DNA from: Girardia tigrina
Taxonomy: Eukaryota
DNA: 51,007 bases
Direction of reading: 5' to 3'
Assembly (NCBI GenBank): GCA_001938485.1
Contig: MQRK01218487.1
Location: 25,671-76,677, forward strand
Numbering within the stretch: position 1 is the first letter of the stretch; each line of letters opens with the position of its first letter. Below the pieces are notes generated by a model that saw only the letters and a program-made list of their open reading frames with translations, searched no databases and had not been told where the DNA came from. Shown one piece after another: positions 9,416 to 45,987 of the stretch. Position numbers and translations under genes: made by a program.

Positions 9416-9418
<3 letters not shown>

Positions 9419-9629
9419 TACTAGTTGGCTACTACACACCGCAAATATTGTTAAGATGGATGAATCGATTTAAAAGATGAATCCTCTATTCTTCAGAAAA
9501 ATTTTACTTATGTATATGTATATATATATATATATATATAAATATTATTTATATATAGAAATATTTATTAAATATATATATATATGGAATATTAATTATT
9601 ATTGATTTAATCAATAATCAGAATTAAAT

Positions 9630-13030: not shown

Positions 13031-13366
13031 TTTGAGTTTAATTGCTAACTTACCATTTGATTTAATCATTAATTTTTAAATTGATTAAATTAATTTTTTT
13101 TCTTTAAATAAAATTATTTTTGAAATTAAATTAATTTTTAGATGAATCATTACCAAAATTTTAATATTAGAACTTTAAAATAAAATCTAAAAATCATTTA
13201 AAATAAAAATTTGTTCAAATAATTTTTTATTAAAAAACATTAACAAAACTATCAATTTAGAAAGATGTCAAATTCTGAAAGCTTGGCTGAGAGTTGTTCA
13301 AAAGGATATCCAAATTGTAATGAAAATAAATGTTCGAAAACCCATTTTGGTGTTCTTAATATATAT

Positions 13367-16800: not shown

Positions 16801-16989
16801 AAAACCATAATCCACATTTTCATCTTTGGTAAAACAAGATTTTTTTATTTTTCAGCTAGTAATTTTATCAACGTTGGGCCATAACGTGAGCATATTATCT
16901 TATTTTACATAGACATATCTGGCACACAAGATAAATTTTGATATTATTATTATTATTATATAATTGTATGCTATTTTGAAATTGCACTA

Positions 16990-18900: not shown

Positions 18901-19133
18901 CAAAGTTATTGTGAGAAATGATTGTAACATAAACTTCAGAAATCTTTTTTTCTTTATTTAATTTCTAAATTTATTATTGTAAGTAGCGTTTATGCCACTT
19001 TCATTATTTTCAAATTCAGAACTCATAATTTAACACCACAATTTATTAATATAACAACAATTAACATATTTAAAAAAATTTTCATGTTAATTCAATTATC
19101 TTACCATATATTAATCTATTAAATTCTTTTCGA

Positions 19134-22339: not shown

Positions 22340-23535
22340 CCGCATATACTCGAGTATAGGTCGGTTCGAGTATGTCGAAGTGTACTTTTTCGACTTGAAA
22401 AGTGAATAAAATTAAAGGTTCAAGTATAAGTCAAAACATGAAAAATTGTTTCAATTTTAATTTACAACACAAAAAATTAACATGAAAATTCATGTAAAAA
22501 TTCAGAGACGAACTTAACATTTTTTGGCACTGTTTTTCGTTTGAAGATCACCACTGGCTTTAACTTAGTTCCGTCTGCCATGCATGCTAGCACGACAGTA
22601 AATCGCGTTTTTTCTTCTCCTGTAGTTTTTATCATGATCATTTTGGCACCAGCTGAATTAACGGTTCGATTTGATGGCATATCAAATGTTATTGGGGATT
22701 CGTCCATATTTCCGATCTGCGATAAATCATAATCGTGTAGTTTTCTGTGCTTGATAACAAATCGATGAAAAGATTGAATCTTTTCTTCCAACGCAGCTGG
22801 CAGTTTCTGTGCAATCTTTGTTCTTTGGCGTAGAGTTAATGAAAATCTGTCCATAAATTTCGAGCACCAACCCGAAGATGCTAAGAATGTAGTGATGCTA
22901 GGCAAGGTCTTGTACTTTTCACTTTTCTTAAGCTGGAGGGCTCGCAGTCTAATGCAGTTACGTGTGACGATGTAGCCTTCTTGCCGTTGAGATACTACCC
23001 AATCATTTCATTCATCTTCCAAATTTTGGAACTATGATATATTTCCACGGCGTGCACGCTTCGTTCTTGGCATACTATTTAATTCCTCCTTGATCTTCCG
23101 CCAATCGCGAATTAGTTTTTCATCAACATTGAATTCCCTCATTGCATTCGAGTTGCCGTAAATTTCTGCAAACGCAACAACTTTAATCTTAAATCGAGAT
23201 TCATATGATTGCCGTTTCCTTTTCGATTCGGCCATTGTATAAGTAAACATTAAAATATTTTATCATAAAAAATTTTATTAACGCAATAGTTTAAAAGAAA
23301 TAACCATAGAAATAGCAGAAATATATAGTCAATAATAAAATAAAACAAATTAATTTAATTATTTTAAACAAAATATAATTTTTACTAGTTTTTTCAATAC
23401 TGTTGATGGTAAGCATGTTCATTCTCTCTAAAATTTTACTTTTTTAAACGTTTTTGTCTCGAGTACAAGTCGAAATGGTATTTTATCATCCAAAAAACAG
23501 AAAAAAATGTCCGACTTATACTCGAGTATACACGG
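22340..23535 (-). mobile_element. pogo-family (POGK/Tc2-like) DNA transposon, internally deleted
   Basis: TIRs CCGcaTATACTCGAGTATAgGTCG and CGACTTATACTCGAGTATAcaCGG with TA on both sides. Transposase has a Brinker-like DBD (RQSYESRFKIKVVAFAE), a CENP-B HTH (FLASSGWCSKFMDR) and the DDE_1 start (IGNMDESPITFDMP..GTKLKPVVIFK), then is truncated. Confidence 0.95.
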
Positions 23536-23723
23536 TAATTTAGATAGGTTTAAAAAAGTTTTGACATGGAGGAATACGGGGATAAAAAACGGGAAATGTA
23601 ACACCCTTTATGGACAGTCCCTTAAATTATAAATTGTAACGAAATTCAAACTTTTGCAACAATACTTCGTTATGTAATATCGACATGATTCGATACTTTT
23701 TTCAAAAATTTTTTTTGAAATTA

Positions 23724-24400
23724 CAGTGAAAGCCGCCTGATAGGATCACTGGTTAATAGGACCAGCCGCTTATTAGGACCAAATTCTGTGGGACCGGATC
23801 ATTTCCTATGTTTCGAATATTAAAGCAGCCGCTTAATAGGAGCAGTAAAAGTCGGTTAATGGGACCACTCATGAAACTGTTTGACCTTTCAAACAACATG
23901 AAAGTCATGAAAAACGTATATTTAGCGTAGGTCATACACCCACCCCAATCAACATACACATACATACGTAACAAAGAAGTAGGTGTTGACTGAATTTGTA
24001 TTTACTGTATTTGTTCTTATCTCTTTAGCTGCAGAGAGCCCTGTAACATTTGTAGCACACACACACAGGACACAGCAAGAGGAAAAGTGTCCTGCAAGCA
24101 AACGTACAGTTAGTGGCGGTAGCTCCATACACTTACCATCCCAGGTACACATGCGTGTGTGTCGCCTAACTCGACATCAATCTTGCTAGAGCACAATGGG
24201 AGGGTTGCAGACTAGCTGCTGACGAGAGCTGCAGCAAGCTCACACCCTCTTATGAAATCGTCACCACCAACTTCTCTCTTGTAGCAACTTGAAAAGTGTA
24301 CTTTGTCAAAAAATAACACCACTTCGCTTAATGGGACCAGTCGATTAATAGGACCAGTTGGGCTTGGGACAAATGTGGTCCTATTAAGTGCCTTACACTG
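23724..24400. mobile_element. Tigger/pogo-type MITE
   Basis: TA|CAGTGAAAGCCGC.. and ..AAGTGCCTTACACTG termini. Repeated subterminal TAAT(A/G)GGACC motifs at both ends; no coding capacity. Confidence 0.8.
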
Positions 24401-25019
24401 AATTTAAAAGATCCTAAACTTTCATCAGAAACAGAAATGAATGTTTATGCAACGGTTAATTTAATCTATAAATAATATATCATGCAAATCTAATATTCAT
24501 ACTTTATGATTCTGGGTTTATAAAAGTATTTTTGATAAAAATTTAAAATTCATAGAACAAGAAAAATTTTTAAAACGACCAAAAAGGATCAAAAATCAAT
24601 ACATTTTGAAAAGTTTTCAATGTCCTCAAATTGTAACAAAAATAAAGACAAGAAAGATAAATAATTGACAAACAATTAAAAAAAAAGAACTAATTAAATT
24701 GGATGGGTCAAATGAATAATTTATTTTGTAAAATGAATTCAAATCTTCTGATGTCCAAGACAGGAGATGGAATTACAATTTATGTAGACGAAAAATTAAT
24801 TGCTTTTAATTTTCTTTTTTTTTGTTATTTTATTCCAATGAAAATTAAATTGAGTCATAAATTTGACAATGTCAATAAAAAATAATTTAATTAAAAATGT
24901 TTTCATATATTTGTATTTTAATTTTTTTGTCAATCTGTAATTTTGCTTATTAATAATTTAGTTTTAAAACAAAAGAAACTCAAATCTTCCTTTCTTTTTA
25001 GTTCTTTATTATGATTTAA

Positions 25020-25575
25020 CTTAATAAATGATAGGGAATGACCTAATGTTTAGATTTTTATCTCTAAACGCTTTGTGACCGTTCAATCTCTATTATGGTA
25101 CTGAGCCTCAGGCTCTTTAGTGGGTCTAACCAAACTAAAGAGCCTTTCAAGTCTCGTTAGTTCTCCTACGAGCCCCCTTTTAGAATGTCCAATAATGTAC
25201 ATTATACCAATGACTGACCATACACTTGGAGGTGTTCATGGACTTAACACAGCCTTGAAACGGACATTCGAATGTTTCTTTTACATATATTTCTGCTATT
25301 TAGAACTCAAAGTTGGTTTCAGTATTCATCTTCAATGTTACTGTCTTAGTTAAATTCGGATGCTCTGTAGGTAGCACATTTGTTGGAAATCGGTTCATCT
25401 TGGTCTTTGAGTTTCCTTCAGCAACTCATTTTCTCCTTTCTTGTGGTAGTTTCTAAGGTGGCATGAATTGGAATAAAGGGAGTAGTGGAAACCTTTGCTC
25501 GGTTTGGTTAATTGGTGGTTCTTATTCACCTGCCGGTTGAGTTCCATTTGTTCCACGAATATTTTCATATTGGTG
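25020..25575 (-). mobile_element. Triple-C2H2 zinc-finger module, copy 2 (older, diverged)
   Basis: Minus translation KIFVEQMELNRQVNKNH / TKPSKGF..HLRNYH / F*IAEIYVKETFECPFQGCVKSMNTSKCMVSHWYNVHYWTF is collinear with copy 1. Same downstream hairpin at 25110-25145. Confidence 0.75.
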
Positions 25576-25589
25576 TTTTTTTTTAATTT

Positions 25590-26780
25590 TCTTAATTTAG
25601 TAAGTGGATAGGAAACCATGTCTCCATTATTTTTCTGAACTTTCTCATGGTCTGCGACTGATCTAATGAATTTCTCAGAAATATCTTAGTTTGGATCGAT
25701 TTATTCTCAATGACTCTCAGATGGTCTTTCTCCAAAATAACCGCATAAAATTTTATTTCTGCATCTCCTCTTTTGTGAATCAAATCTACGAACAAATTGA
25801 CCAACTGGAATTCATTTAAATCGGGCTGGAAATAAACAATTTGTTTCGAATATTTCTCGAGATATTTAAACACATTCGATCAATTTTTCGATTTAACAGC
25901 TATTAGTTTATTTTCCGTTTAGGATTTATTTTGCCATTTATTAATGAATTTTTCGAAAATATATTCAACTGAGAATCGTTCAAGAAAATATAATCTAACT
26001 CATGTTCGAAATCACAGAATGCGCACATCGAAGAAATAATGTTATTTGTGTTATTTTAAAAATTCAATTAAATTCAACGCTGATTTATTGAGATACTTTT
26101 AAATAAACTCTTCAAATTTTTATTTGGTTGAACAAAGACACTTTATTTGAAAGTTTTTAATTGAATGAAATTTTACACTTTTCACGATTGCCAACATTTT
26201 TCCCCTTTGAAACATCGAAATTCTGACAAAATTACAAACCCAATCATAAACACAAAATCCAATCCTTTCGTACATTTCACACGAAACACACTTACACGTC
26301 ATATTCAAACACACATACATCACAAACACAATCCAGCCATTTATTGGCAGAGAAAAATTAATTAAAAAAGAAGGCTCACCATTTGATTTAAAATTAGAAT
26401 TCATAGAATTTTAAGAGATGATTAATGAATTCAATTCAAATTAAACCTTTGAATCAATCTTAAATGTCATATCTCTTTTCGAACTATTTGAATTATTTCT
26501 TGATGATTTCTCATCACTATAATCTAGCATCGTCATAAAGCGCATCAGTGAATAACGAAAACGGAAAATGTCGATCAAATCGCTCAAATTCTCATTGAAA
26601 ATAATTTCAGTGAAAAAGAGCTCTATAAATTTTATTTTTCTTATTTAATTATTTTAATTACTTTATTTATTTAATTAAAGAATTAATTTAATTATTTTAT
26701 TGTAATTTATTATCTATTTTATTTATATACTTTCCTTTAAACTGGCAAATGTTCAGTCAAACCAAATTTCCGCTCCAGTA
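25590..26780 (-). repeat. Unclassified repeat family B, copy 1, with decayed unknown ORF
   Basis: Head TGGAGCGGA..TTGAC.GAACATTT..GCCAGT..AGTATATAAATAAAA, AT tract, GTGAGCCT..TTCTCTGCCA, then a TG tract; all shared in order with 50513-51007. 93-aa ORF remnant at 25592-25873. Confidence 0.7.
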
Positions 26781-27036
26781 AGTAAGCCATTTAAGGGATC
26801 ATTGTATCATCCTTATTGTAAAAGTTAAATAGTACTAACTGTTCTAAAAACTGAATTATTCAAAATTTAAATTAAATTAAATTAAAAAGAAAAATGAAAT
26901 TTTCAAATACAGTAAATTACTAGTAAATCAAAAATAATTTTTGTCTATTAATGCTTCATGCAAGGCGAACTCTGCTTGGCCAACAGATTTTTTTTGTTAT
27001 CTTTTGTAAAAGGGAAAATTACTATCACATATTTAA

Positions 27037-27261
27037 TCGTTAGAGTACGGAGTGGGGGACTTTAGGTTCCCCAAGATTAGTTTTCGTGTTTGTTTATTAA
27101 AAATAAATGTTGTAAATCTAATTAAATAATCGTTTTTTAATTTACTAACAGTTTGTTATATTAATATGCCAACTTATAAACGAAACAAATTTTTTGTGTG
27201 GGGGACTTTAGTGACACCACTCCGTTCTTTATGTTATAAAATAGACTCCGTACTCTAAGGG
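27037..27261. mobile_element. piggyBac-type MITE
   Basis: TTAA|tcgTTAGAGTACGGAGT ... ACTCCGTACTCTAAggg|TTAA: 14-bp perfect inverted core and TTAA on both sides. GGGGGACTTTAG occurs twice internally. Confidence 0.88.
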
Positions 27262-27700
27262 TTAATAAATTTTTTACTATTAGTTACTATTTAAATCTTT
27301 TGAAGAAAGGAAAATCTCATAAAAAAACATTTTTCAACTTAATTTTACAATTAAATAGTTGCAAATAACATAATAAATTTATTATAAAGCATTGAAGGAA
27401 GACAACCAAAGCATTTCTATTTAATACAATTTAAATTTTTGGGAATAATCGTATAAACGTTTTATGAAAAAGAATATTTTTGATTTACTAGTTTGATCGA
27501 ATTTTCACATAATTATTTATTGTCATCGAAAATGAGTAATTTTGCATAGTTTGGAGAAAATTGTGACAAAATTTCAAGTTGAAATATGTAAAGATCCTGG
27601 GATATACATTAGATGCTCAAAGCTATGGTCGCTGTATAGAGCACCTTTGACTTGTGTTATTATCACTTGTGTGAGTAAAAAGCCGTAGGAAAAATAGAAA

Positions 27701-27746
<46 letters not shown>

Positions 27747-29301
27747 NNNNNNNNNNNNNNNNNNNNNNNNNNNNNNNNNNNNNNNNNNNNNNNNNNNNNN
27801 NNNNNNNNNNNNNNNNNNNNNNNNNNNNNNNNNNNNNNNNNNNNNNNNNNNNNNNNATATCGTGCGAGCTGTGAATTTGTGTACGTGACAAAATTGTGTC
27901 GTCGTTCTTTATGAAGTGGATCAGTGCAGTGTGAATCGTAAATATATATGTAGAAACTAAAATTTTTAATATTGAATCGTTTTCAATGTCGTTTTATTTT
28001 TTTAAATACCCCAAAACTTTCTTTAGTGATCAATTGTGGGTCGGTATATTGTGTTTGATGTGTATATTTAAGGGTTTATTGAGTGACAAGATACATAGAG
28101 TGTTTGAACGGCTATCATTTTAGAGATTTAGATCGGTTTATAATCAGCATTGAAATCTATTTTTGAATTTCATATTTATGTGATCTGTGGTAAAATAATA
28201 ATTTTTGTTTCCAATCGTCATGGACCTTGTTTGCTGACATCCATCAATCTACTAATTGATGAAATCGTACGATATGTTAACATTTGAGAGGGATGCTGAC
28301 TTATAAATGTACTTTCATTGGAACACTTACATATAATTGTAGTGACTATATAGAATATTTTTTTAAACTCAATATCTCGATTAGTCCCTTCTGGCGAGCC
28401 AGTCATTATGATGCTGCGTTCAGATGAGTGACTTCGATATTATTTTATATCAACATTTTGTTACATGGAAATATATATCAATTATCAAATAAATTAATTA
28501 AAATTTAAAAAGCATATTTTCAAATTATTTTAAAACCGAATTATCGCAATCGCTGAATGACACCTTTTCTATCGAAGAAGAAGAGTTTTTCGAACAATTT
28601 TAATTATTTCAAATAATTTTTTCTCTTTACGACTCCTGTCAAGCAAAAATAACAAAATTTGTTCGAAAGAAGTCATAAAATTCTAACTTTATCTATATCA
28701 TAATAAAAAGAAGACAACAAATCTCATACCGTCCTCCAAAGAATTCATTAAGAAACGACCCTATTGTTCCTAACTGATAGATCTTTTGATATCATTCCCG
28801 AGTTTCCAGCACCCAGATAACTACCACTCTACTCCAAATCACTGATTTTATTAATCGAAACAATCAAATTTCTAAGGAGCATTTACAACGACTCGACAAA
28901 AAATAAAGTAATTCTATCATTTAACATTTTTCTCCTATTCTAAACAATCTTTTTAGTACTATACTAAAGTACTTCTTTTAATCTTTCTCTTCCAAGTTGT
29001 TAGTTACACATATTTCATCATTATTAGGTAAACTGTTTTTGTATCTGGACTTTTCATCCCTTTGTAGAATGATCCATAATATGGATGGAAGTAATAATAA
29101 AGAACACAGAAAAGTTTTCAATCTTTATATGAATGTAACGATAAATAATTTCAGAATTCTAAATACTCTTTAATATGTTTCGGAAAAGTTGCTTAAATAA
29201 GCTGTATATTAGATATTTTTATTTTAAATTCAATATTTTTATTAAAATTTTACATGATTTTCTTGACCGACTGATGATGAGGATTCAATCATTGTGGGAG
29301 G

Positions 29302-30340
29302 AATATTTTAAATTGTTTGAATGTGTAAATGTATGTAAAGCGTGGGGCGTGAGAGTATGTGCTTGACACGCGGAAGTACGCCTGGAACCACACTGTTTTT
29401 CCTGCCAAAATGGACGGGCAGGACGGACTACAATCAAAATCGAGTTACCGTCTTTTGATGGCGTATTTTGTAGTAGAACAGGGCTGCCATCTAACCCACG
29501 CGCACCGAATTTTGGATCGCCGCAGCTCAAGATCAATGTACCGCAGATCGAACGGTTATGTGCTTGATCGAACTTGATAATTCGTTTTAAATTCACCCGT
29601 GAGGAGAACGGGTTTGACAGAAATAAATTCTTCGCCATGATTACAAAATTCAAATCCGTGAATAATTGTGTATTTTTATTAATTCAAACAAATGCATTTT
29701 TTTTCTTGAAAGCAATATTTTTTTACATTTTTTTATACAATTTGATAATAGTTTTTTTTAAATCATATTCCAGGAAAATTTTTTTCAGTTTCAAAACCGC
29801 GTGCAAATATATGTATTTTTTTATTTTGATTAAAAAAATTTTAATTCTGCTTTACTAAATCACTACAGTATGGATGCTGTATGTTGATTTAAGTATGTTG
29901 AATTTAGAATGGTGATTCTCCAAACCAGATGGAAATTGGTATTTTTATTTAAATTTAAAGTGATTGACTATTCGAACATAATTAAAATAATCATTTGATA
30001 AGTTTATTTTTTTAAATTTAACAATTAAAATTAAGTGTAATATTTTTTTAGTAAAATTTAAATTAAATGCATTTTTAATAATTTGATAACATTTTTATTA
30101 TTTTATGTTTCATTAAGAACTGATTAAAATTATAATTTTTAATTAATATTTTTTAGAAGTTAAATATTTGAAAAAATAACTTCGAAAAATTGTTCGAATA
30201 ATCACGATTAAAAATAGAAATAAGAAAACCAATTAGAACGATGGCAAACGATGAAAGGCCTTCTGAGATTCGTAATGACTCTAAACGTGATTGCAATAAA
30301 AATTCAAATGAGAATTGTCTCAATGTTCTTAATACATTGG
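29302..30340 (+). repeat. Unclassified repeat family A, copy 5 (split by a solo-LTR-like insert)
   Basis: Removing 29334-29870 restores the sequence seen uninterrupted at 5880-6420 (-). Confidence 0.9.
29334..29867. mobile_element. Probable solo LTR (534 bp)
   Basis: TGTA...TACA termini, GTA duplicated at 29331-29333 and 29868-29870, no long TIR, and one GC-rich and one AT-rich half. Boundaries are fixed by the empty-site copy. Confidence 0.7.
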
Positions 30341-31656
30341 AATTTATTTGTGTCCAAATTCTTCTGATTTTTACGATGATTAAAAATTAATTGATAATTA
30401 TATGCTATAAGTCTCTTTAAAATAAACAAGTATTCATAAGAGAATCAAATAAAGCTAAAAATCATTTGCAAGCGAAGTTTCGTTTTGATAGATTCTTAAG
30501 AGAAATAATTCATAGACAGCTTCCTTCCATCCATCAACATAAATATGACCAACATTGTAACACATTTCCGCTCAGTGTTAATACTGACAACTAAATTTGG
30601 ATTCTTCTTCAAACTCACAATTGTGAATCGTTTCTTTCTTGTTTGATTTTCCTTTTTAAAGTCTCACTATTGCTACTTGAGCTCTAAAGAACTTTAAAAT
30701 TAGGAGCTCGACATAAATAAGATCTTTCTGCAATCAAAAAAACAGCGAAAATAAAAGAAATTGATAAAATAGTTAAAACAATAAAATTAAAATTTCAATA
30801 ATTAAAACAAAAAAATAAAACAATTATATAATCAATTAAATGATATTAATTAAAGCAAATTGAGGATTTTAATGTTATTAATTTTGTTAATTGATTAAAA
30901 TTTACAAACTCCTTATTATTATTAAAAGCCTTAAAATTATTAATCTAATAAATTATTCTAAGTTAATTAATGCAAACATTAAACATATTAATAATTAATT
31001 AAAAATAAGATTCTTATGCAATAAATGAAAAATTAGATTAAATTTAATTTAATCTCGATTTGTACTAAAATAATAAATAACTAAATAAACAAAAATCATT
31101 AATTGATAATATTAAATAATTTTCAAAAAATGCTGAAGCAACAAATTCAAAAAAATGTAAATTAATTAAATTGAATTAATAATAAATTAAGTAGTGCAAA
31201 TTGTTGGTTTTGATAGATAATAATGCCATTTATATATATATATATATATATAAATTCTTTTCTTTTGCTAAAATCATTTTACCAATTTATGTTATTTAAA
31301 AAATCTTTAATGTATCCAAAATATTATAAAGATTTAAAAAAAAGAAATATTTATTTCGATCATTATTTTAAATTATTAAATTTTCAACTTTTTATATTTA
31401 ATTAATGTAAAATGCAATTCTTTAAAAATTATATTTTAATTGTAAATATTTAATCCAAATTATTTATAATCAGAATTTTTAAATCTTCTTTTTTATTAAA
31501 TTAAATTATTTAAATTTCGAACAGCGAAAATGAAAATTACCAAACACGTCATACAAATATTAAACATATTAATAATTAATAAAAATAATATTCTTAGGTA
31601 ATAAATAAAAAATATTATTCGAATTAATTCAATATCGGCGTTCAGTTCGATTCTCA

Positions 31657-32727
31657 GGTTACCCCAAAGACAGGACGGTGGTAGTGGTAGAGTGGCAAGT
31701 GACGGAAAGGAAGCTTGGGCATTTCCTGTTCATGCTTAGCAAATTTTATTATGGAGTGTAAATGTTTGCGCATCAAAATTTTTTTTAACTTTAATCGTTA
31801 ATTGAAAAATATTTTTCGGATTTAGAAAATTTAATTCGTAAAAAACAAATATAAGGGAATTTTAATTAAAAAGACGGATTGAAAAAAACAAATATACAGG
31901 GGAAAACTGTTTTAAAAAAAATGAATCTCGACTTAATCGACTACTAAAACAATTCAATTTTTTAAGGAGAAATGGTTTGTTAAAAAGTATTTTACATTGT
32001 AAAATATGTGAAAATTTACTACACGAAGTCAAATATGAAAGAAATATCGTTTGTTATAAATCATTTTAACCAATCATTTTTTTATAAATCATTTTGTGTA
32101 AACAAATTAAAATATATTTCGAAAAAGTTTTTTTTCGAAGAGTTTAAAGTTAAATTAATAGTTGGTTTTTGGGTTTGTTTTTAAATCAATCAATGTCTAC
32201 CACAATAGTTCACGTTGTTGGGTTATAAAAATTTATAAAAAATTAAGAATTCTATGTGAAAAATACTTTATTGAAAATCCAACTAAACTCGGTGGAAATG
32301 GCATTATTTACCAAATAGATAAGTCAATGTTTAGATAAAAACATAAGTATTACATTGGCCGAGTCAACAGTGATTACAAGTGGATTTTTGAAATTTTTGA
32401 CACCACGATTTCCCCGGCAAATTATTATGTTGAACTTGTTGAAAATGGTAGAAGAAAAACGTTTTTGCCGATAATTGATCGAGTTTGTAGACATGGAAGT
32501 ATTATCTGGAGTGATTAATTATTAGGCGTAATTTAACACATCAAACTGTAAATCAGTCTGTTTTTGTTGATCCAGTTACAGGTGTGGATACACAATGTGT
32601 AGAATTCTTATTAAAAAAAGTGTATTTTTTATTTTCATTTTATTAAACTTTATTATTATGTAATTTTAATAATTTATTAAAAAAAGTGTAATAGTTGAAA
32701 AATGACTGTTTTGACAGTAGGGTAACA
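31657..32727 (+). mobile_element. Merlin (IS1595/ISXO2-like) DNA transposon, decayed
   Basis: KLGGNGIIYQIDKSMF..KYYIGR..WIF..LPIIDRVCRHGSIIWSD..TVN.S..FVDPVTGVDTQCVE. Degenerate GGTTACCC / GGGTAAC termini. Confidence 0.9.
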
Positions 32728-33633
32728 ATAGACAATGCTCACAAATTCTTTTAAAATTTAAGTGATTTTAACATCTGTAACTATCTCAAATTATCTAAAT
32801 CAATAAATGAGAGAAATATCTCTCTTGAAAAAACCTCTCTATTTCAACCAAAAAATCAAACCAAAATTGACAGAAAAAATTGTTGGAAAATTTTAATTAA
32901 AAATTATTGTGACAGGAATGTCTGGCTCAAGGCTTGCTCTGATTAGGTAACCAATCAGAGCGAACAATTTCACTCACCAATTGATACAAAATGGCACACA
33001 GACTGCGACAGTAATTGAATGCATATTTTATTTATGAGTCATCATCGATTTTTTTTGTTTCGTTGAACAAAAATAAAACTATATTTTTTAAAAATTACAT
33101 TTGTTATTTTGTTTATTTTTTTATATTATTTATATATTTTTATATGTACAATGAAACAATAAAAATTTCAGCAATTACCATTCATTATTTACTTTGGATT
33201 TGAATTGACTTTGGACAAGGAGAGAGAGGAATTTATAAATTAATATAACAATTTATAATTCAAATTCCGAAACACTCGGTTTTAATTAATATAATAGTCG
33301 AACAAATAAAAAAAGTAACAAAACAGATAAAATAAAACAATTTATTAGAAATATTTAATAATTTTCAAACCATTTACTAAAGCAATGAATTGGAAAATTA
33401 AATTAAAATTAAATAAAATACTGATTGAAAATCTTCATAAATATTTAATTTGTTCAAAATATTTTGTTTGTTAATTTTCAGTTAATTGTCCGATTTAAAC
33501 GATCGACAATTAATAAAAAAATGAAGAAAATTAAACAAAAACATGAAGACGTATAAGTTAACATTTTTCGCAAATAATTTAATATAATTTTATTAATTAA
33601 AAGAAATTAATTAATTAGGTCATATTTAATTAG

Positions 33634-33728
33634 ATGTCGAATTGGGACGACTCGCTGTTCAAACAAACAATTTATTCGACATGTATCCGAATATGGAGTT
33701 TGTTTTTCCATTCAAATGAATTATTCCG
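33634..33728 (+). CDS. DEG/ENaC-like gene exon
   Basis: ttag| ... |gtaaat, 95 nt, phase 2-1. Encodes CRIGTTRCSNKQFIRHVSEYGVCFSIQMNYS, the C....C....F.....yG.C(Y/F) motif. Confidence 0.9.
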
Positions 33729-33978: not shown

Positions 33979-34224
33979 AGTTAAATTGGTTAAAAATTGC
34001 ATTGGACCCCGAGGAGTTTGATTATTTGATACCGAATGATGGAATTGTGGGGTTCAATGTCTTCATCCATGATACCTTACCTCTTGACCAAAATTCAATG
34101 GCGAAGAATATGGTTGTTGTGGGACCAAATTTCGAGACTATCGTTCGAGCGAAAGTCGTTCAAACTATGACCAATGTTTGTAAATCACATTTTAAGTGTA
34201 TGGTACAAATGAATTGCAATAAAG
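33979..34224 (+). CDS. DEG/ENaC-like gene exon
   Basis: ttttag| ... |gtaaat, 246 nt, phase 1-1. Encodes LKIALDPEEFDY..GFNVFIHD..P..VVGPNFETIV (palm/beta-ball L.L..eY..G.v.IH..P..v.P.f.T motif), then CKSHFKCMVQMNCNK. Confidence 0.92.
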
Positions 34225-34266
34225 GTAAATTGTAATATTTAAATGAATTAAATTAATAAATCTTAG

Positions 34267-35050
34267 ATTGTTGGAAGACCAAATTATCAGTGTCTCCAGG
34301 AATCATTACCCAAGCCATAAGATCTCCGTATTATATGGAAATCATTTCCAGAAAATTAGATTATCAGGCCAACTTACAAAGAAGTATTAACCGAGTAAAT
34401 CTGGGTCTTAGTCTTCAACAAAGAAGTTTCCTTCAAGCGACTAATAAAACATTATATCATATCCTTTCAAATTTAACAACAACTTTTGTCTTGACATTAA
34501 AAGACATTTTGAACAAAATTGATGATATAATGACTCAAATTCAAGCGTATTCTTCGAATCAGTTAAAATTCGACGAAGAATGTCTTCATGGTCTTTCTCT
34601 ATCCTTATCACGACTAGGTCTTTTATCCCGAGATTATTGGCACAAACGAAAGTCTCAGGATGTGTTAGAATCGAAATTTCTTCACAGTTCTGGACATATA
34701 CAACTCTATGTGATTACCTGTTTTTTCTCCGGTTTAAAAATCAAATCTCCAATTTTGCATTTCCTTCAATCTAATTTAGCAATTGTATCAAATTTTAAAG
34801 TCCAGCTTCAAAATGGAGACTTATATCAGCTTCAATCAGAATCAAATCGAGATTGTTTGACTCCCTATAGTAAACATAAAATCGTATTTTTTCGATCACA
34901 AGTAGAAAAATTGGAAAAATCCATCGTAATGTATTTGGGTCAGTTGAGTGAAGCAAATACAAAACTATATTTGTTGGCCGATGAGCACCGACACATAAGA
35001 GCTAAATTTCCTATTACAAAATTGCAAGCTCAAAAACCAGTTACGGAAAA
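34267..35050 (+). CDS. DEG/ENaC-like gene long exon (helical insertion)
   Basis: Follows a 42-nt GT-AG intron in frame (DCWKTKLSVS..). 784 nt open in a very AT-rich background; probable phase-2 donor AA|gtaaaa. Confidence 0.88.
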
Positions 35051-35239
35051 GTAAAATTATATTTATTATTTTTGTATTGTTCAGATATAAACTAGACTTA
35101 TTTTTTATTAATTCATCTTTTATATAAAAACTCTCAGAAACCCGCATATATATATTATTGTAAAAAATAATAATATGTTAAAGTATGAACACTACACAGA
35201 AGTATAAATCGTCTTTATTACCGTGTATAACTTATCCAT

Positions 35240-35800
35240 CATCAGATGCAAATTCAATTTATGTTTCGATGTCTGGATCCTTCTAAGTCTTATTTTAACA
35301 GCTTTTTACTGGGCACCCACTTTCTGACAATGTTGTGAAAATGAAAACTATCTTTCTGAAACGCATCTTTTTCAAACCATATGGGAAATAACTTTTAGTA
35401 TTGATACCCTTCAATGAATAACTCTGGTTGACCACTGTACACGTGCACAGTCACAACTTGATCTATAGAAATGGGACTGTGATTATCATCAGAATAATGA
35501 GTTTATGAATCAGCTAAGAGTAAGAGTCAAAATGGGGGTGCAGCGATAAAGAAGGATAAAGTTTATCTCTAAAGATTATTTATCCGATAAACCAGTTACA
35601 TCTGGAGGTGGAAGAAGATGGAGCTACTCCACGGAATATTCTAGGTGGTTGCCAACTTCATCTATTAATCAATGACTGTGCACCCATTTGGATGCCCAGT
35701 TATAATGTTAAAACATTGTATGGATCCTACTCATTTCGACTTCTAACATATTGTGCTTGCACTAGTGTAGTCTGAGACCTTTCCACAGATTTTTCATGGA
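35240..35800 (-). mobile_element. Decayed Penelope-like 3' end (GIY-YIG remnant plus hammerhead-like core)
   Basis: Minus fragments C.WFIG and LADS*THY..H..I..V..LFIEG resemble the PLE endonuclease. CTTAGAAGGATCCAGACATCGAAAC on - at ~35264-35289. Confidence 0.4.
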
Positions 35801-36721
35801 GTAGTTGAAAATCCTCCAAATCTCTAAAATAAAGTACAATAATTAAATTGTCAAAAAGTCATTCATTGAAAAATCTGATTAATCAAAATTTGATTGTATC
35901 ATTTTGGTGATTATTTGTCTTCGTTGTGTAGTCTCGTAATTCCATCATACTGAAAAGACTTTGTGTACCGTTTTGTGTTTTGATGGAAGTCTCCACATGT
36001 AACGTCTGATGTTGCTGTGCGTTCTCAATGAGTATCTTTTTTTGCGACTTAGACCTTTTGGAGTTAGTTATAGCAAATTTTAAGTCAATAAGTTTTCAAT
36101 ATATTAATTTATTTTTATTTGGGATAAATTTATTTTATTATTTTTCTTTTTTTTCCTTGTTGATTTCATGAGTGATGGATTTGAAGAATATTTTAGCAGT
36201 GGATCAGTCTACAGGCAACGCAAGGAGCTCATAATGTATGTCAAGACTGTAACAATCTAGCAGTGAAGAGAAGATGACACCTTCTAAAATGTTGTTTACA
36301 TCGATCATTGAAAAACATTCATGGCCACCGATTTGTCGATGGATAATGACAGGTGCTTATAGTTTATCCCGAGACTATAGGCGATATGGTAGTCAATTAG
36401 AGTCAATACGTCATAAAACCTCACGATATTATTATGAGACAAATTGTGTAAAATAGTTCCGATGTGTCAAACATTCATACAACTTAGCTTTTGTTTTCTG
36501 TTTTTAATATTAATCGTCATCATCTCGTTCGTTCATCCAAAGCATAGTGAGAGGATTGGAGGCTGTTGTATTTTTGAGCTTTCTATCCGATACAGAGTCT
36601 ACTATTCTCTTTCCTATGCTTCAATGCCTTGAATCTTAGTTTAACGCAATTATCCATCATAGTTGGGGGACACTTAATTAGAAATAAAATTAAAAAAAAA
36701 TAAAGATTAAAGTTGCATACA

Positions 36722-36891
36722 GGTGTTGCACCCCGCGGACCGTTGGATTCACCAACGGAGGCTTGCACGTCGCGGAACGGTATGTCGGGTTTTGAATCTT
36801 CGTTGTTCACAGTGAGCCGCGATCGAGAGAACCCGCTGAGTCAGGAAGTCCGTCTGATCTCAATCGGCACCGCACCGAGTCGTGCTTTTTT
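36722..36891 (+). other. GC-rich structured island ending in hairpin plus T6 (unknown ncRNA/SINE or part of an LTR)
   Basis: CCGTTGG/CCAACGG stem (36740-36758) nested in CCGCGGAC/GTCGCGG; ends in GCACCGAGTCGTGC-TTTTTT. Confidence 0.4.
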
Positions 36892-38399
36892 CAAGTTCTT
36901 TATTTTTTTCAACGACATTTTTAGGGCTATTTAAACGTTTTATTTATCTATATTTTTATGGATTTGAGATTAACTACAAAGATAATATTACTTTAATTAA
37001 TATCATGTATTTAAAAGACATTTCCACCGTATTTTTGGGTGCTGGGTAAATTATTTACTTAGATTATTTAAAAGTTAAAATACAAACTTCATGAATTTCA
37101 TAAAACAGGTGCTTATGAATATTTTGTAATCTCATAAGGTATGGAAAAATAACGATTTTCTTCTTAACATTATCATTCCTTTAGAGTATTTTTAAAGAGT
37201 ATTTTATGAGCCTCTAAAATAAAATTCATTTGATCATACTTATTCCTATGTCACTAATGATTTGTTCGTAATTTGCTTTCAATTGTTACATTTAAAATTT
37301 TAATTTGCAATTAAATGAATTAAAGATTTTTATTAAAATTGTCATAAGTCAAAGTATAAAGTAAAGAAAAAATGATTTTTCAGTTTGTTGGTAAAAAATG
37401 TATTGCTGATGTAATAAAATTATATTCTGAACTGGAGGAATGTTAAATAATTATATTTTTGAAATTTAGTTAACAAAAATATCTTATCAAAAAATTTTAT
37501 TATTCCTTAAAACTATGTTTTAAATTTGTCACTGAGATTATATTTTGTTTCAAAATGTTAAAAAAGAAGAAGATTTTCCAAGAAGACTTGAAAACCTTTT
37601 CAAAACTAGATTTTCAACAAAACATATGTTCTATAAGTTTAGTTAAGAACGGAAGATTTTAATTGAATATTGTATAATAAAAATTATAAAATTAAAAAAT
37701 TTTGACCAGTAAAACAGATTAAAGAGAAAATTGTACTTCGGAGGGTAAAATTCAGATTCAAAGATAAATCAGTTTGTAATTATTAAAAAAAGAAATGTTA
37801 ACATTTTGTTTTTGTTTTTGTGAAAAATAGTTCTAAAAGATTTTTTAAAATCAAGTTTGTCTTAATTTAATGACTGTCGTGTATGTTTTGTTATAATCTG
37901 CTATCAACAATGACCTTGACATTAACTTACTTAAATATGATTGGATGAATCACTTTGAATTATTTAATGGATAATTTACTTAACATCACATGTTGTATGA
38001 ATGTCTTTTGTGAATTTTGTTCTAAGCATTTATTACATAACTTTTATTTAAAATTAAATATATTTTTTTATTAATTTATTAGAAATTCAAAATTTGGTGT
38101 TAATTAAATTTAATTAAAGATTCTTTATCAAAAAAAGAAACAGTATATTTATATATTTAAATTGTTCTAAAATTCAAATATTTTTTCATTTTTAAATTTA
38201 ATTTTGTAGAAATTAGAAAGCGCTTTCGGCAGAATCTGTTTATTAAATTACCGCGATTCATATTTTAAGAGTAATAAAATTTTAGCCATAATTTGGCATA
38301 ATTTAATAAGAAACTTAAATTATATTGATTATTCATCCTCTATTTTTTACCATTAAAACGAAACAAAGTATTGATTTTAGTTCGAAGTACCTTGCAAAA

Positions 38400-39360
38400 T
38401 GTTTCTTTAACTGTTAAAGTCAATCAAATATATGCCACTTACAATAACCAAAACTTTAAATTCTGACATAAGCGGCAGCAAGGATTCCAAATATCAGTTC
38501 CTTTTGGCGTTGTCATACTGAATTGAAAATTCGAATTAAACTGAATCTTCATTGTGTAGGCTGCAGTAAGATGTACCGACAAGATGGAAAAGTATTTTGA
38601 CAATACCGCAGAGTCTTCTGCAGACTAGAGAAGCATTAACTATTTAAAATGTCAAATGACTGAAGCAAATAATTTGACCAAAATAGAAAGATTTTGAATA
38701 GGAGATTTCTTATATTTTCACAGTTTTAAAACTTATTTTGTCAGGTTACTGTTCTGCTGGATGATCTAGATTATGTTTCATGAAGTTGCAAATTCTCATT
38801 GCTTTTATAACTGGCAAAACACATAACTAATGGTGATCCGGCTACATAGCAAGATTCAAGGCAGCATTTATTAAGAACTTCAATAAACGGGTAATTGATA
38901 TGACAAAGTGTTGAAATACTACAGCTTGCAACATCATTAAATCCATGCTACAAATACATGAAGTGTTTTTCGGAAGTTGCAAAAGAACTATCATGTTCCT
39001 GTATTGAACAAAAAATATTAAGTTAAAGACAGATAAAGACAGTTGCAACTGACGGGTATGATATTGACAGCAACCAAAAGTGTATTAAGCTAATGAAGTA
39101 TGATTAAGGTACAGAAAATATCCACAACTCGTCTAATGAATTACTGCGTTATATAATGGAGATTAAAAGTTCTGAATCCGTTGTTCCTCTGTAAAAATAT
39201 CCAAAATTGTCATTTTTTGAGAAAGACCGTTTGTGCGTACCAGCTGACTCAGTTCGTGTGAAAGATTTTTCAGCTTGGCTGGTGATATTGTTAATAAGAC
39301 CTGTTCATCACTTGAACCAAATAGTGTCAACCCACCTGTATGTAGTGTAGTTGGTTAAAG
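38400..39360 (+). pseudogene. Decayed hAT (Ac/ZBED1-like) transposase, C-terminal part
   Basis: PTRWKS (TRWNS), AT*QDSR (AT.LDPR), and dimerisation-domain KYPKLSFFEKDRLCVPADSVRV..FS..GDIVNK. Confidence 0.8.
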
Positions 39361-39561
39361 ATAACGTATAAGGAAGACATACAGTTTCATTTATATTATT
39401 TTTGTGTTATTTATTGCAGTGTTATTTACGTTTAATAAATGTTACTTATGACAAAAAAGTGTAATTTTGCCATTAATCGAAAATAAATTTTATTAAAAAG
39501 TTAAATTTTCAAAATTTAAGTAATACATTTTAATAATTCGTTAACAGTCATAATATATATA

Positions 39562-40818
39562 CGTGATGCGTTAAATAAATCATTAGACTGGGGAATAGAA
39601 TGATGGCAAAAAAGACGTTATTCATATTAGTTGTAATATTTTAGGCTCCGTATATGTTATTTTGCTTATTGTTTTGTTTACGTTCCTAAGATTTTGAGTT
39701 CGGCAGATTGAATTCAATTATTTATGCGCATTATTATATCGAGATTTTAGTACAGATGTTTCTTCGAATCCCTTAAGCTAAAAGGGCCAGCTAGCCAAAG
39801 TATTGTTGAGCAGCTGTAGAACATCGCTCCCTCTCGAGCAACAATTTACAAATGGATTTGCGACTTCGTCATGATCTGCAATCCGTTCTCAACGAAGAAA
39901 GATAAAGGAAGACCATTCAAAATTTCATATGACAAGCGTGATTTATTGCTGACAATTATCATTTCTAAACTCAGAATCAGCATACAAGAGTTCTCATAAC
40001 TGCTACACATCAGTTCTTTTTTTCACTCATGTAATCCTGAAGGAACTTGACATCCGAAATCTGTGTTCATGCTTTATGCCGAAGATCATTAGCTGTAAAA
40101 TGGCTGCCATTTGCCTCGCATGCTGCTAGTACAATATCTTGCTCTACGATAAATACGGCAACATATTCTTGGAGAATATCATAACCGAAGACGAGACTTC
40201 TATCAGTCTCTAATTTTCTGATAGCAAGAAAATTTCTGGCCAGGGATTCACGACATCAGAGTCAGCGTCATGCATGCTTTGTAGTGGAACATCTTATCGA
40301 AAAGATTCCACACTCAGTGTCTTTTGGATCATTAGAGGTGTGATTTTCATTGACTTTCTCGAAAAGAGTGCTACAATGAACTCGCAGTACTATTGTTGTG
40401 TCATTCGTGATGTGCATAATCGTCGAGGCAAGTTTCCACTCATTTCTCTCAGGCTACTGTATGACAATGCGCTGATTCACACATCGAACCTCCTTTCTAC
40501 GACCACAACAGAAGACTGTGGATTCCAGATAATGTGACTCCCCTATATAGCCCTGATTTCGCTACCAGTAATTTGGCGCTTTTCCGCCATTTCAAACAGC
40601 ATCTCCAAAGTTAACATGTTAAAAACACAATCGCACTGAAAGAGAAAGTGGAAGAAATTCTAAATTTTCTTGACCCAAATTTCTTCAAATCACATGCGTC
40701 GAACTTTTTCGCCGTTGGAAGAAGTGCCCGGATGAGGTTTGTGTTTAAACAGTAAAAATTTAAATGGAATCTGACTTTTATTTCGTGTCGAGTCTAACAG
40801 CATATCTAACGCACCATT
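39562..40818 (+). mobile_element. Full-span decayed mariner transposon
   Basis: Imperfect TIRs TA|CGTGATGCGTTAAATA and TATCTAACGCACCATT|TA. Motifs FLENIITEDET, SVFWIIRGVIFIDFL, LLYDNALIHTS and PYSPDFATS. Confidence 0.9.
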
Positions 40819-41677
40819 TATATTGAAAATATTCAAAATGATTAAAAATTATTTTGATTTTAATTTTATGTTTTCAAATTATCATAATTTAAAATTTTTC
40901 AGTGTATTTTTTATCATTTAATATTTTTAGAACTGGACTTGAAAGCATTCGATAATGAAACATCAAATTTTTATAGCAAATGTTTAATTAATAAAATAAT
41001 TATAAATAATTGAAAATTAGTTTTGTTAAAATTTTCTGAAAATTATACAATTGTTCATTTGTTCTGTTTATATAACCCCTTTGTGAGTTTTTCATAAAAG
41101 TTATTATTGATTTTTTTTAAATTAATGATATTTAATTTCCTAAATAAATTTCCAAAAAAAATTTAATTTGTAGTGATTTATTTAAAATCAATCGGGGTCA
41201 AACAGTCCTACCCTCATATGGGATGATTAAAATAAATCCTAGGGATAAACTGTAAGTAGAATCAATAAAAAAGTACCCAAAAATAATATTATTTTAAATA
41301 ATAAAATTCGTAGTTATTCCAATATTTTCAATGATTTAAAAACCAATTTTAATACGAATTTAAAGAATTTTCTTAAAATATATTTTGTAATTAAACTTGA
41401 AAGAACAAATCTAGCCAAGTTTTGGAGAACCACTTGGCAGTCAATGAAATAAAATATTGTAAAAAAATTTTAAATTATTGAGATAAAATTTATGCCAGAT
41501 ATTTCGATTTTGAAATTAAAATGTGTTTTTCCAATATTTTTTTAATTAAAATATAATTTCCAATAAAATTGTTAGAAAGTTTGGTAACTTATTTTTCCAA
41601 AACTGAATTACTGAAATAATAAGGCATAAAGAAATAAATTTAATAAGCTTACATTGTTGATAAACTTTCCTTTTTAA

Positions 41678-41760
41678 CCTTCAACCGTTCCTCAAATCGT
41701 CTGTACACTAAAAAGACTGTACACTTCGGGTCGACAAAGACCCGAGGGACGGATGAAAGG
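41678..41760. mobile_element. Miniature piggyBac-like inverted-repeat element
   Basis: TTAA|CCTTCAACCGTTCCTC ... GAGGGACGGATGAAAGG|TAAA with an internal CGGGTC/GACCCG hairpin. Confidence 0.6.
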
Positions 41761-42065
41761 TAAATCAAGTTCTTAAATAAAAACGTTTTCACAAGAATCT
41801 GTTGAAAATTGAAAGTCCAAGGTTTTCAAATATCCGAGAAAAGTCCTCAAAAATTGAAAAAAGAACTATAGGACAAGATTCCTTTTATTTTTAAGATGAT
41901 TCTTGTAAAAATTAATATTTTTGTGTGATTCTTGAAATTTCGTAATTAAAGATTTTTTGCGTCCTGGCTGGGATTGTTTTTCTATGAATGCGAGTCTAAT
42001 TTTGTCTTAAATATTGCCAAAGATCGAATGGAGTGCGAATTGAAAATACGGTTCAAATTTGCTCT

Positions 42066-42320
42066 GAACTAGTAAATCAAAAAATTAAATTTTTTATATC
42101 CATTCTTTATGCAGACTACTTTGTCAACAAAGTTTTAAAAATTTAAAAAATTTTAATTAAAAAAACACCATAAAAAATAATATAAACTACTTATAATTTA
42201 TAAGCAGATATTTTGCAATTAATATTGTTCGGAAACTCCAAATATTCCGTTTTTTCCCATTTCGGGACTTTAAACAGTTTTTTTCGATCAAATTTTTATA
42301 TAATCATTTATTGTCATGTT
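42066..42320 (-). repeat. Helitron-like family fragment (empty-site relative of 13367-14543)
   Basis: gaactagtaaatcaaaaaattaaattttttatatccattctttatg is identical to the sequence starting at 13371; similarity continues for ~200 bp. Confidence 0.85.
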
Positions 42321-42370
42321 TAAGAAAATCGATTGAGTAAAAAGCCTTCAAAAACAAGTTTCTAAATGCC

Positions 42371-42410
<40 letters not shown>

Positions 42411-45400
42411 TAAGGTAATAAAAAGAATGGAATAAATGAAAAATTTCCTTGTTTGTTTTCATTTAATTCTAAAGAAAAATATTTTATTATTAAACAAAGA
42501 ATATTTTCGAAATCGTCTCTAATATCTCATGCTTCTCCAAATATAATAATTGAACCATCTAAGAATCTTGTGCAATGCGGGAGCTGTCGAAACCACCCTA
42601 CTGGCTGCGATTTAAGTATTAACCCTATAATATTCTTATCAAAATATTATAGCGCGTCTTTTATAATAAAAAAACTGATTGTCTCATAATATTAAGGTCT
42701 TTTTTGGAGTGAGACATTCCTCTCTGATGTCTTTAACAATTATGCAGACCAAAATAGTTATAAAATAATTATAATTTTTAACATTTATATTCGTTATTAA
42801 ATCAAAACGACAAATAAAAGTTGAATTTAATTTCATATTTTTAAAAACTTGTGTAACTGAAATCTGTCTCTATTAATAGTCGTTAAACGATCGTGATTGT
42901 CGGTTCAACCGTAAACTTTCAAATTCTTTTCCATCGTCATTGAGTGGAATTTGAGTCTTCGAGAGTGTAATCGGCGGTGACTTTTCATGTGACGAAAAAC
43001 ACGATTTTTTTCAATCTAAAATATGAGAACGTAAATATTTTAGACTTCTTTTTTCCCAGAAATATTCTTAAAATTAGTCTTTAAAACTAATTAAATAAAA
43101 CATAAACGTTACCCCAGCTTTGATGTAGTAATGTAACTAATTAAACCTTAAATTCATGTTATCCTCGATGCTTGTAGCAATTTATTTTACTTTGGATATC
43201 GTGCTTATTCATGTTTGTATTCGATATTTTTCTTTTTTAACCTCTTACAGGATACTTTGTACATCAAGAAACGTTATGATTGTAAATAGTGAACAGACGT
43301 CTAAGGCCTCATCTTAAAGTCTTTGGTAATTTTGTATACATTACATGAATCTTGCAGTAAAGTAATAAAAACATATCATATCGATCTTTTGTTCCTTTTA
43401 TTTTTTCACTAATTTCTAATAGGGATATTTGAATAAATTTTGTAATTTTAGCAACTTTATCGTTTTGTAATAACTCTCGATAGATTATTATCATATTTAT
43501 GTAAACTTTATTCGCCCAGAGACGCAATTTTGAATGAATTGTTGAGAAGCTTTGACTTAGTACCAGAAAATGGAAACAAAACTTGAGCTTAAAAGTATGT
43601 CAAAAAAGTTTATTTTGTACTTTAGAAATGAAATAGGATGTTTATAGTGAAAAAAGGTATTTTAATTATATACAATCACTAACCAAACTTACAAAACACC
43701 TCAACAACGCCTATGAAAAGTTATGTATACAATATTTATGTATACAAAATTTGTACAATAAGAATGAAAAGTGGCAATTTTACAGACCCTCATTAGCAAG
43801 CCATGGACTCTAAACAATCTGATGCAATAAATATCGGGAAAACATTTAGGTTATATAACGAATGACAATCACATAGATTATTATTATGAAGCCATATCTA
43901 GTGGTAAGTACTTCTGTCGGTAAAAGGTACTTTTAAATGTAAATTTATTTTATTTAATTAAGTTTATGTCCAAAACGGTACCATATAAAAATATTTTTCA
44001 TAATAATTAAATTATAAATATTCCTTTTATACTGTAATTTATTTAACTGACTACAAAATTGTACACTATATTATGTATAGATGAACAGAGAAATGTGTAG
44101 ATTCAACTTTTTTGACTCGAATTTTATTTATTTTTAATTCAGAATTGACATTTTGGTAACAATTGCCCCCCTTAGGGAGGTGTGTTCATATGCTTACCAC
44201 AAATGGATTAAATTGATACATTTTACGTAAGAAAGTGCAGTGTTTGATATTGTATTTTGATGAGGAACAAGATTGAATGTAACCATGTCATTAGGTTTCT
44301 CTATGCTCATGATTTTAAAAAAAATTTAGAAATTAATTAATAAATTCTGAATGATATTTGTATTATTATTAATTTTTAAGCAATATTCAAGAATATTTTT
44401 TCTGTGGTTAATTTTGTAATTAGAAAGTAGATATACAATCCAAATGTAAAGATTTTAATAAAAATCCTTCGAACATTTGTTATTTTGTATATCGTTACCA
44501 TTTTTTAAGTTATTAGTAGATGAAAATTGTGTTATAATGTACATAGTTTACGATGACTGACAAGAGGACCTTAGCAAGCTGGAGGTTCAACAGGGTTGAC
44601 AAGAATTGTTTCGATACAAAGTTTAGAAAATATAAAGCGAGATGTGATATTTTCTTATTTCTTATATCACAACTTAAAACATTTAGTCTGTCTTCTGTTT
44701 TGATTTAACTACCCGATTTGGTATTCAAACGAAGTAGAATAGTAAGGAATCATCATGCTTCCTCAACATGTTACTGTTATTCGACTTCTTCATTAACCAA
44801 AATATTGCTTCTCCTGGATTCCGGAATAATAAGTTACTAAGTAAGAAGGAATAGTGTTTTAAACAGAAAATTTTGTCTCTCTCTTTTATGGGATTCAGGA
44901 CATCAAATCAGGGATGTTTCTTAAGACATAAGTCCTATATGTTTGTCTTTTAAAAAGAGAGATCTGAATCTCCTTCCTTTTCTTTATGTAAAATAATACC
45001 GTCGTTAATTATATTAACATTGAAGATTTCAATTCATCAATTAAGTATAATCTTTTACTTGAAAAATATTTAATAATCGTGCTTCATAAGGGGTGGCTCA
45101 ATTTATTCTAACAGGTTTGACAAGTTTGTACTCCTTTAAAAAAAATTCATTATAACCAATTATTTGCTTATAAAAATAAAAATCTTTGATGTTAAGTAAT
45201 ACCGACTTACACATAGCAAAGATTGTTTCGAAAGCAATTTGGGTTAGTAAATCACCATCATTATTACAACCACCCTCAAACTTCAGCTGAATTCATCTTT
45301 CTAAACTAAAAATAAAAATGCATAAGAAAATATTACTTTTAATTTATTTATTTATTATATATTATTTGAACTAAACTGAATAATAATTTGATAATTATTT

Positions 45401-45465
45401 ATTATAATGATTAATCGAAAATGTTTTTTTTTATTTTTTTTGTCTTGACTTATATTTTCCTTCAG

Positions 45466-45551
45466 GCTCGTATCGATGATTATTCTCGTTGACCGGAATC
45501 ACTTGTCCGAGGCAGCATTTCTCACATCTATGAATACACGAAATAATATAG
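45466..45551 (+). CDS. Probable DEG/ENaC-like gene exon leading into TM2
   Basis: Long polypyrimidine tract plus cag|, donor |gtgggt, 86 nt. Phase-2 start fits 35050. Encodes LVSMIILVD..AFLTSMNTRNNIG, ending where the pre-TM2 'dIGG' motif is expected. Confidence 0.55.
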
Positions 45552-45987
45552 GTGGGTCGATTTTTTATAAGAAATACTTATTTTATCTAATGTCTTCCGT
45601 GTTGTCAAGTGAGATCTAGGAGTTTATATCACGAGAGTTTTTTCTAATTTGCTTTAATAATCAATAATTATGTTCTCGAAGAATGTGTAAGTCTTTTGAT
45701 TGTCCGCATGAACAGTTGTCGTGCGAAGTTTAGATACAGACGTAAACAAAATTTCTACTAATTAATAAACATGGATTCATTAACCGTTCTACGAAACGTA
45801 TCAACATTTAAAAGTAGACAATTATAAGGATATTTATGTTTAAATATTTTTAATTTATTAAAATTTATTATTATATCATAAATTAGGAATTTCGTAGTTC
45901 AAAAATGTTTATCATGAATGAATGAAATATTTGACGCCGTTTTAAATATTTTATATTTTTTTATTTTGATTCTGATTTTAGTATTAT

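Follow-up and report, generated by a model that had tools for sequence, protein, structure and literature searches.

Channels of the DEG/ENaC family, among them ASIC, BASIC and ENaC (PF00858), have an extracellular region in which finger, beta-ball, palm, thumb, knuckle and beta11–beta12 follow one another in a fixed order. Five of the ectodomain disulfides sit in the thumb, and the thumb disulfides and the second transmembrane helix (TM2) are treated as constants of the family. Even the non-conducting or silent subunits, such as ASIC2b, ENaC beta and gamma and MEC-10, keep both transmembrane helices and the thumb. According to excerpts of a structural account, the palm forms the centre of the trimer, the knuckle its top, the thumb joins the pore through the wrist, and the family shares seven conserved disulfides (PMC6197857). 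Excerpts of further papers place a G/SxS selectivity filter at positions 10′–12′ of the pore helix (PMC8536179), describe an acidic pocket between finger and thumb in ASICs (PMC10507113) and review tether models for MEC-4 and ENaC (PMC10148893). For platyhelminths, the parts of the literature available to us report no true ASICs in two species (PMC9949801), many divergent sequences dropped as singletons (PMC10507113) and three Macrostomum channels that gave no peptide currents (PMC9234716); these same parts of the three papers do not mention the architecture described below. In titles and abstracts, the scope of our literature search, we found nothing on a thumbless or TM2-less DEG/ENaC protein or on the insert.

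Here we describe a spliced, conserved, DEG/ENaC-derived gene that belongs to a known family and has an unusual architecture. It keeps the domain order given above, and differs from ASIC, BASIC and ENaC in a thumb reduced to a stub, a knuckle region of 259 aa that holds a predicted helical insert, and the likely lack of the pore helix and its G/SxS motif. The reading that we favour, with a probability of roughly 55%, is a non-conducting, membrane-anchored, DEG/ENaC-derived trimer that would display a predicted helical domain at the cell surface.

Gene structure

The window, that is, the whole stretch of 51,007 nucleotides analysed (G000:C218487:25671-76677), comes from a fragmented, AT-rich animal assembly of 1.43 Gb, possibly that of a free-living flatworm. 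Its 3′ part is repeated on two further contigs at 99.98–100% identity, one of which reaches 14 kb further. Assembled contigs of four runs from four studies, among 17 runs listed, were aligned to 33962–35110. None of the runs that contain this stretch is recorded as RNA; we presume that they are, and read their joints as those of processed transcripts. In one of the four, 64 of some 1,030 aligned letters differ (about 94% identity). The resulting gene model is as follows.

8076..8231, + strand: coding exon, finger and GH motif, phase 2 to 2; AG/GT ends, homologous exons in three paralogues
8232..33633, + strand: putative intron of 25.4 kb; transposon remnants, three assembly gaps
33634..33728, + strand: coding exon, beta-ball/palm, a C-x6-C pair and a third Cys; profile of ASC paralogues, contig ends
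33979..34224, + strand: coding exon, palm strands and three of the four Cys of the thumb stub; identity to paralogues, contig cover
34225..34266, + strand: GT-AG intron of 42 nt inside the thumb stub; joint in 4/4 runs
34267..35050, + strand: exon of 784 nt, final Cys of the thumb, beta10 and knuckle insert of 252 aa (predicted helical bundle); contigs, homologous exons
35051..45465, + strand: intron of 10.4 kb, contains TAA at 35052–35054; loose ends match 45467 onward in 4/4 runs
45466..45619, + strand: last coding exon as read through, beta11–beta12, N-I-G-G, degenerate TM2 remnant, stop at 45617–45619; first 30 letters from contigs, the rest from translation
45620..45800, + strand: likely 3′ UTR with AATAAA at 45764–45769; projected contig ends, GC

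The contigs of all four runs leave the genomic sequence at 35050/35051 and resume in sequence located at 45467 onward. Because they pass over the TAA at 35052 and go on to the exon at 45466, this codon is intronic, and termination at 35052–35054, which the original prediction had named among the outcomes that would overturn it, does not occur in these transcripts. At the other end, the 3′ end of exon 33634–33728 is the upstream loose end before 33978 in 4/4 runs, and the exon scores E 1e-4 against a profile built from ASC paralogues in the genome, under our own scoring model. One contig starts exactly 94 nt upstream of the palm exon, which corresponds to exon 33634, and another exactly 250 nt upstream (94+156), which corresponds to exon 33634 plus exon 8076, a single-copy sequence in this genome. 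These start points lend indirect support to the joining of exons 8076 and 33634 across the 25-kb intron. Two in-frame acceptors lie 15 nt apart at 33619 and 33634, and the contig start exactly at 33634 is consistent with a splice branch.

The proposed DEG/ENaC origin holds. The palm exon (33979–34224) matches those of paralogues at 41–44% identity, with E 4e-9 and 2e-8, and the domain order is kept. Taken singly, the window's own exons have no Pfam ASC match and the palm profile has no PDB match, so the family call rests on paralogues and motif order. Exons of the closest paralogue, on contig C254564, match PF00858 in order, at profile positions 22–79 (E 1.9e-4) and 205–261 (E 0.015), scoring below the curated cut-off. 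A profile of three TM1 exons of the subfamily found only DEG/ENaC structures in the PDB (14/14 matches, all weak, E 0.03–1.1), with no preference for ASIC over ENaC or FaNaC. Should the animal be a flatworm, the subfamily ought not to be called 'ASIC', given the lack of true ASICs in the two platyhelminths covered by the available part of PMC9949801.

Four related intron-containing genes in this genome share the palm exon and three share the insert exon type; paralogues lie on C254564, C213769 and C179754. The C254564 gene resembles the present one in its short finger, a palm exon of 44% identity and a homologous insert exon (823 nt) of identical phases; it differs in having a thumb exon of 100 nt that carries 5 Cys, followed by an assembly gap and then a C-x-C-x3-C motif that heads the insert exon. 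Another member (L038, G000:C179754) is compact, with TM1, finger and palm exons inside 1 kb; in the 22 kb downstream, a region with gaps, we found no convincing thumb exon and neither an insert nor a TM2 exon. The genome has at least 93 Pfam ASC matches, scored of 266 candidates and many of them on redundant contigs; most are single open frames, and a large intronless DEG/ENaC expansion (G000, L001–L020) is apparent. From these 93 matches we took 20 loci, which yielded 14 distinct intronless paralogues. They belong to the same family and their knuckle region is already 75–88 aa long, yet they have a full thumb and an intact TM2 and lack the long insert; their filters vary (for example, GIT, GLT and GCS).

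Selection was measured on the 40 differences listed of 63, pooled over runs, of which 31 are synonymous and 9 non-synonymous. Among these, the palm exon holds 11 synonymous and 1 non-synonymous differences (pN/pS 0.02, p ~1e-7) and the insert exon 20 and 8 (pN/pS 0.11, p ~2e-8), with no indels. The palm is thus the most constrained part, and the insert too is under purifying selection. These counts bear on whether the locus is a decaying pseudogene or an assembly artefact, as a thumb and pore that look lost and a fragmented, redundant assembly might suggest. We consider this very improbable: the gene is spliced in four runs, one of them only about 94% identical, and strong purifying selection with no indels among the differences listed argues that it is not decaying.

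The thumb is reduced to a stub

From its first to its last Cys the thumb measures 17 aa and holds four Cys spaced C-x5-C-x5-C-x3-C, compared with 95–114 aa and 8–10 Cys for the same segment in the 14 distinct intronless paralogues. Both the translation and the removal of the 42-nt intron in 4/4 runs bear out the four-Cys, 17-aa thumb of the original prediction; since the intron is spliced out, no thumb exon is hidden in 34225–34266, and this stretch would carry stops if retained. Palm and thumb remnant share one exon here, whereas in C254564 an intron follows the palm strand. The view that thumb loss is more unusual than the insert also stands.

Measured against the seven ectodomain disulfides of the family, the gene falls short, as the four thumb Cys can form at most two. 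Since Cys are even in number at the two thumb ends, two nested disulfides may seal its base. Proton gating in ASICs involves a wrist His, a palm Lys and the finger–thumb acidic pocket; the thumb half of the pocket is absent here.

The finger had been described as minimal as well. It is short, with 42 aa before the GH motif in exon 8076–8231, although not in a way special to this gene: the exon encodes 51 aa and the matching exon of three paralogues 53–57 aa. Judged by these exon lengths, a short finger is typical of the four-gene subfamily. In intronless paralogues the finger spans 55–74 aa, against about 50 here if some 6 upstream residues are assumed.

A long, predicted helical insert in the knuckle

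Between the last thumb Cys and beta11 lie 259 aa, compared with 75–88 aa in the 14 intronless paralogues. The insert itself measures 252 aa and is rich in Leu (15%), Ile (8%) and Gln (8%), in line with the length of about 250 aa and the composition first noted. The heptad-like pattern claimed for it did not survive: a 3.5-residue periodicity reached p<0.05 against shuffles in 1 of 11 windows. We therefore rejected a canonical heptad coiled coil, as there is no periodicity above shuffles and the model is a bundle of long helices. AlphaFold2 on the insert exon alone, with a three-row alignment, predicts an all-helical fold (pLDDT 57, pTM 0.44), with long helices placed at low confidence at exon residues 20–96 and 199–246. 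The paralogue insert folded alone reached pLDDT 41, too poor for use. A Foldseek search with the insert model gave no match at E<=0.001, and the structure search matches are generic four-helix bundles (VIA Z at most 11.9, within the range of generic helical bundles).

The caution that the insert may not be unique was correct. Its exon (784 nt) is homologous to exons on C254564 (823 nt) and C249944 (838 nt; G000:C249944:29088-29925, L063), with identical phases and 17–21% identity; in three leave-one-out tests of 500 shuffles each, no shuffle scored as high as the real sequence. The exons upstream of the third copy are absent from contig C249944. This copy has one Cys at its head where that of C254564 has three (C-x-C-x3-C), and thumb erosion may for this reason have occurred more than once. 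Outside this genome, where similar inserts had been suggested for some spiralian ASIC-like proteins, protein searches with the insert exon found no relatives at longer and near lengths, nor did a search with the palm-exon alignment at longer lengths or one among 1.84 billion representatives; these results are weak evidence of rarity.

The pore helix and the end of the transcript

Read through, the exon at 45466 carries N-I-G-G in register with the family motif and with a conserved upstream Glu. Preceding it is T-R-N, in the place of an apolar pair and S or G in 14/14 paralogues. What follows contains two Lys, no G/SxS at 10′–12′ and a stop at 45617, and the best 19-aa hydropathy of this tail is 0.91, compared with 1.60–2.35 in the 20 paralogue loci. 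A hydrophobic TM2 with G/SxS is thus absent from exon 45466 as read through. Beyond the last joint the contigs extend 296, 329, 335 and 340 nt, of which the first 30 letters are shown; if unspliced they would end at 45762, 45795, 45801 and 45806. Three of these four projected ends fall 26–37 nt beyond the AATAAA at 45764–45769, a motif that 11% of random 36-position intron windows hold by chance. GC content is 0.31–0.32 up to 45800 and 0.17 thereafter; three other intron starts of the gene have 0.15–0.22, although a GC of 0.31 is also attained by 39% of intron windows of 250 nt. Contig ends, AATAAA and the GC step together point to a transcript that ends near 45800 and has lost the second half of the pore helix (TM2b), which we regard as probable.

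The competing account is that the transcript is spliced after 45551 into an unseen TM2b exon, which would make the protein a real channel subunit whose insert would stand in for the thumb, as a tether or ligand site. A good donor-like site in phase 1 does follow 45551, presumably near an intron position of ASIC genes, and we take the paralogues' upstream intron phases to be ASIC-like as well. The 211–255 nt of contig left over would leave room for TM2b and a tail, and with introns of 10 and 25 kb in a fragmented assembly such an exon could lie outside the contigs analysed. Set against this, the TM2a stretch is polar whether read through or spliced at 45551, the 19,534 bases downstream hold no TM2b-like motif, the AATAAA and the GC step coincide with the projected contig ends, and reading through completes the family I-G-G in register with the conserved upstream Glu. 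Splicing to a TM2b exon is on balance unlikely. Loss of the thumb upholds one half of the initial description of a channel without its normal gating modules; the other half, that it is a channel, is doubtful, as the read-through holds no credible pore helix or G/SxS. We do not annotate the gene as a working channel, because its thumb disulfides fall short of the family pattern and TM2 is probably missing too.

Other candidates for the C terminus were rejected. A TM2-like peptide at 26445 (E 0.8) lacks I-G-G context and is in the wrong order, mini-introns after 45551 give a TM2 in no frame, and a GPI signal is in our judgement unlikely in a weakly hydrophobic, Lys-interrupted tail. In the genome we found neither a paralogue of the last exon nor TM2 exons of the insert-bearing paralogues on C254564 and C249944. 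A TM2 pattern run across the genome matched 152 times, compared with 95 times in the control. Twenty loci taken from 100 of these matches include an orphan, intron-split TM2 exon of an intron-containing DEG/ENaC gene with an intact G-L-S (L133 1492-1689, G000:C157174; also on C90027), with no tie to the subfamily.

The N terminus and the membrane anchor

No TM1 exon was found in C218487, a contig with gaps that offers about 33 kb upstream, and the HG motif was not located. Genome-wide, a TM1-exon pattern matched 19 times, compared with 4 times in the control; among the 19 are the TM1 exons of the three paralogues and an orphan on C56656 that encodes a hydrophobic helix, has a compatible phase and measures about 174 nt. 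As there are four TM1 exons for four palm exons and the phase fits, the orphan is the likely first exon of the present gene, although we found no overlap joining the two. A Cys-Asn-Pro stretch at 5626–5690, which we take to resemble a transposase tail, was rejected as the first exon (no hydrophobic helix, weak donor).

A protein with no transmembrane anchor, secreted or loosely bound to the membrane as an ectodomain, would account for the 33 kb upstream without a TM1 exon, the mere 208–273 nt that contigs carry upstream of exon 8076, and the weakly hydrophobic tail. Yet assembly gaps lie just upstream, the match in number between TM1-type and palm exons and the fitting phase and length of the C56656 orphan speak for an anchor, and an unpaired Cys in the beta-ball needs a partner, such as the Cys in the C56656 exon. 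We judge a secreted form improbable and keep to a membrane-anchored protein.

Proposed function

How might a membrane-anchored, non-conducting trimer have arisen? The subfamily would first have gained a long helical knuckle domain with the thumb retained, the state that C254564 displays; the present member would then have lost the thumb, as its transcripts show, and probably the pore helix. TM1, probably encoded by the C56656 orphan exon, would serve as an N-terminal anchor, and the four Cys may pair in two nested bonds and so close the thumb at its base. By analogy with solved structures, the conserved palm would still build the core of the trimer and place three helical bundles at its apex, where they may bind an extracellular partner (matrix, mucus or a protein). 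Since the ectodomain is coupled to the pore by way of thumb and wrist, a loss of gating and conduction with display preserved fits the loss of thumb and TM2 and the retention of palm and insert. More tentatively, at slightly less than even odds, we propose the fuller account of a DEG/ENaC protein turned non-channel: thumb and pore helix deleted, the palm a trimerising pedestal for a helical domain specific to the lineage, the product a single-pass adhesion, tether or receptor protein of the cell surface, and the gene part of a small stalk-bearing subfamily with thumb erosion in at least one other member.

A regulatory role would draw on the same palm. Here the protein would co-assemble through it with thumb-bearing paralogues (for example, that on C254564) and silence, traffic or anchor them. 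The palm exon common to four genes, the insert exon type common to three and the strong constraint on the palm are in keeping with co-assembly, as are the knuckle–finger contacts between ENaC subunits described in excerpts of PMC6197857. Simple inhibition, however, needs no strong selection across the whole insert, and this role seems to us rather unlikely. Display of the helical domain by a non-conducting trimer has a likeness to the silent subunits and to the MEC-4 and ENaC tether models in the lack of conduction alone and in extracellular tethering; it differs in that the silent subunits keep the very modules that are deleted here. If correct, it would give the DEG/ENaC ectodomain a role apart from ion conduction. 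The gene would also be a natural deletion for probing the thumb's part in folding and trimer assembly, and in its sister gene, which has both thumb and insert, the knuckle itself would supply the tether, so that the long-standing tether model of DEG/ENaC gating could be tested directly.

Other features of the window

An Rfam search gave 0 matches. At 1463–1903 on the − strand, antisense to the DEG/ENaC-derived gene, lies the C-terminal part of a FAM46/TENT5-type nucleotidyltransferase (Pfam NTP_transf_7, E 5e-11), with no N-terminal half seen in the next 2.3 kb. An LTR integrase, Tc5/pogo and mariner transposase remnants and a C2H2 zinc-finger ORF occupy 104–1018 (+), 22480–23259 (−), 40214–40534 (+) and 13534–14151 (+), mostly within the long introns.
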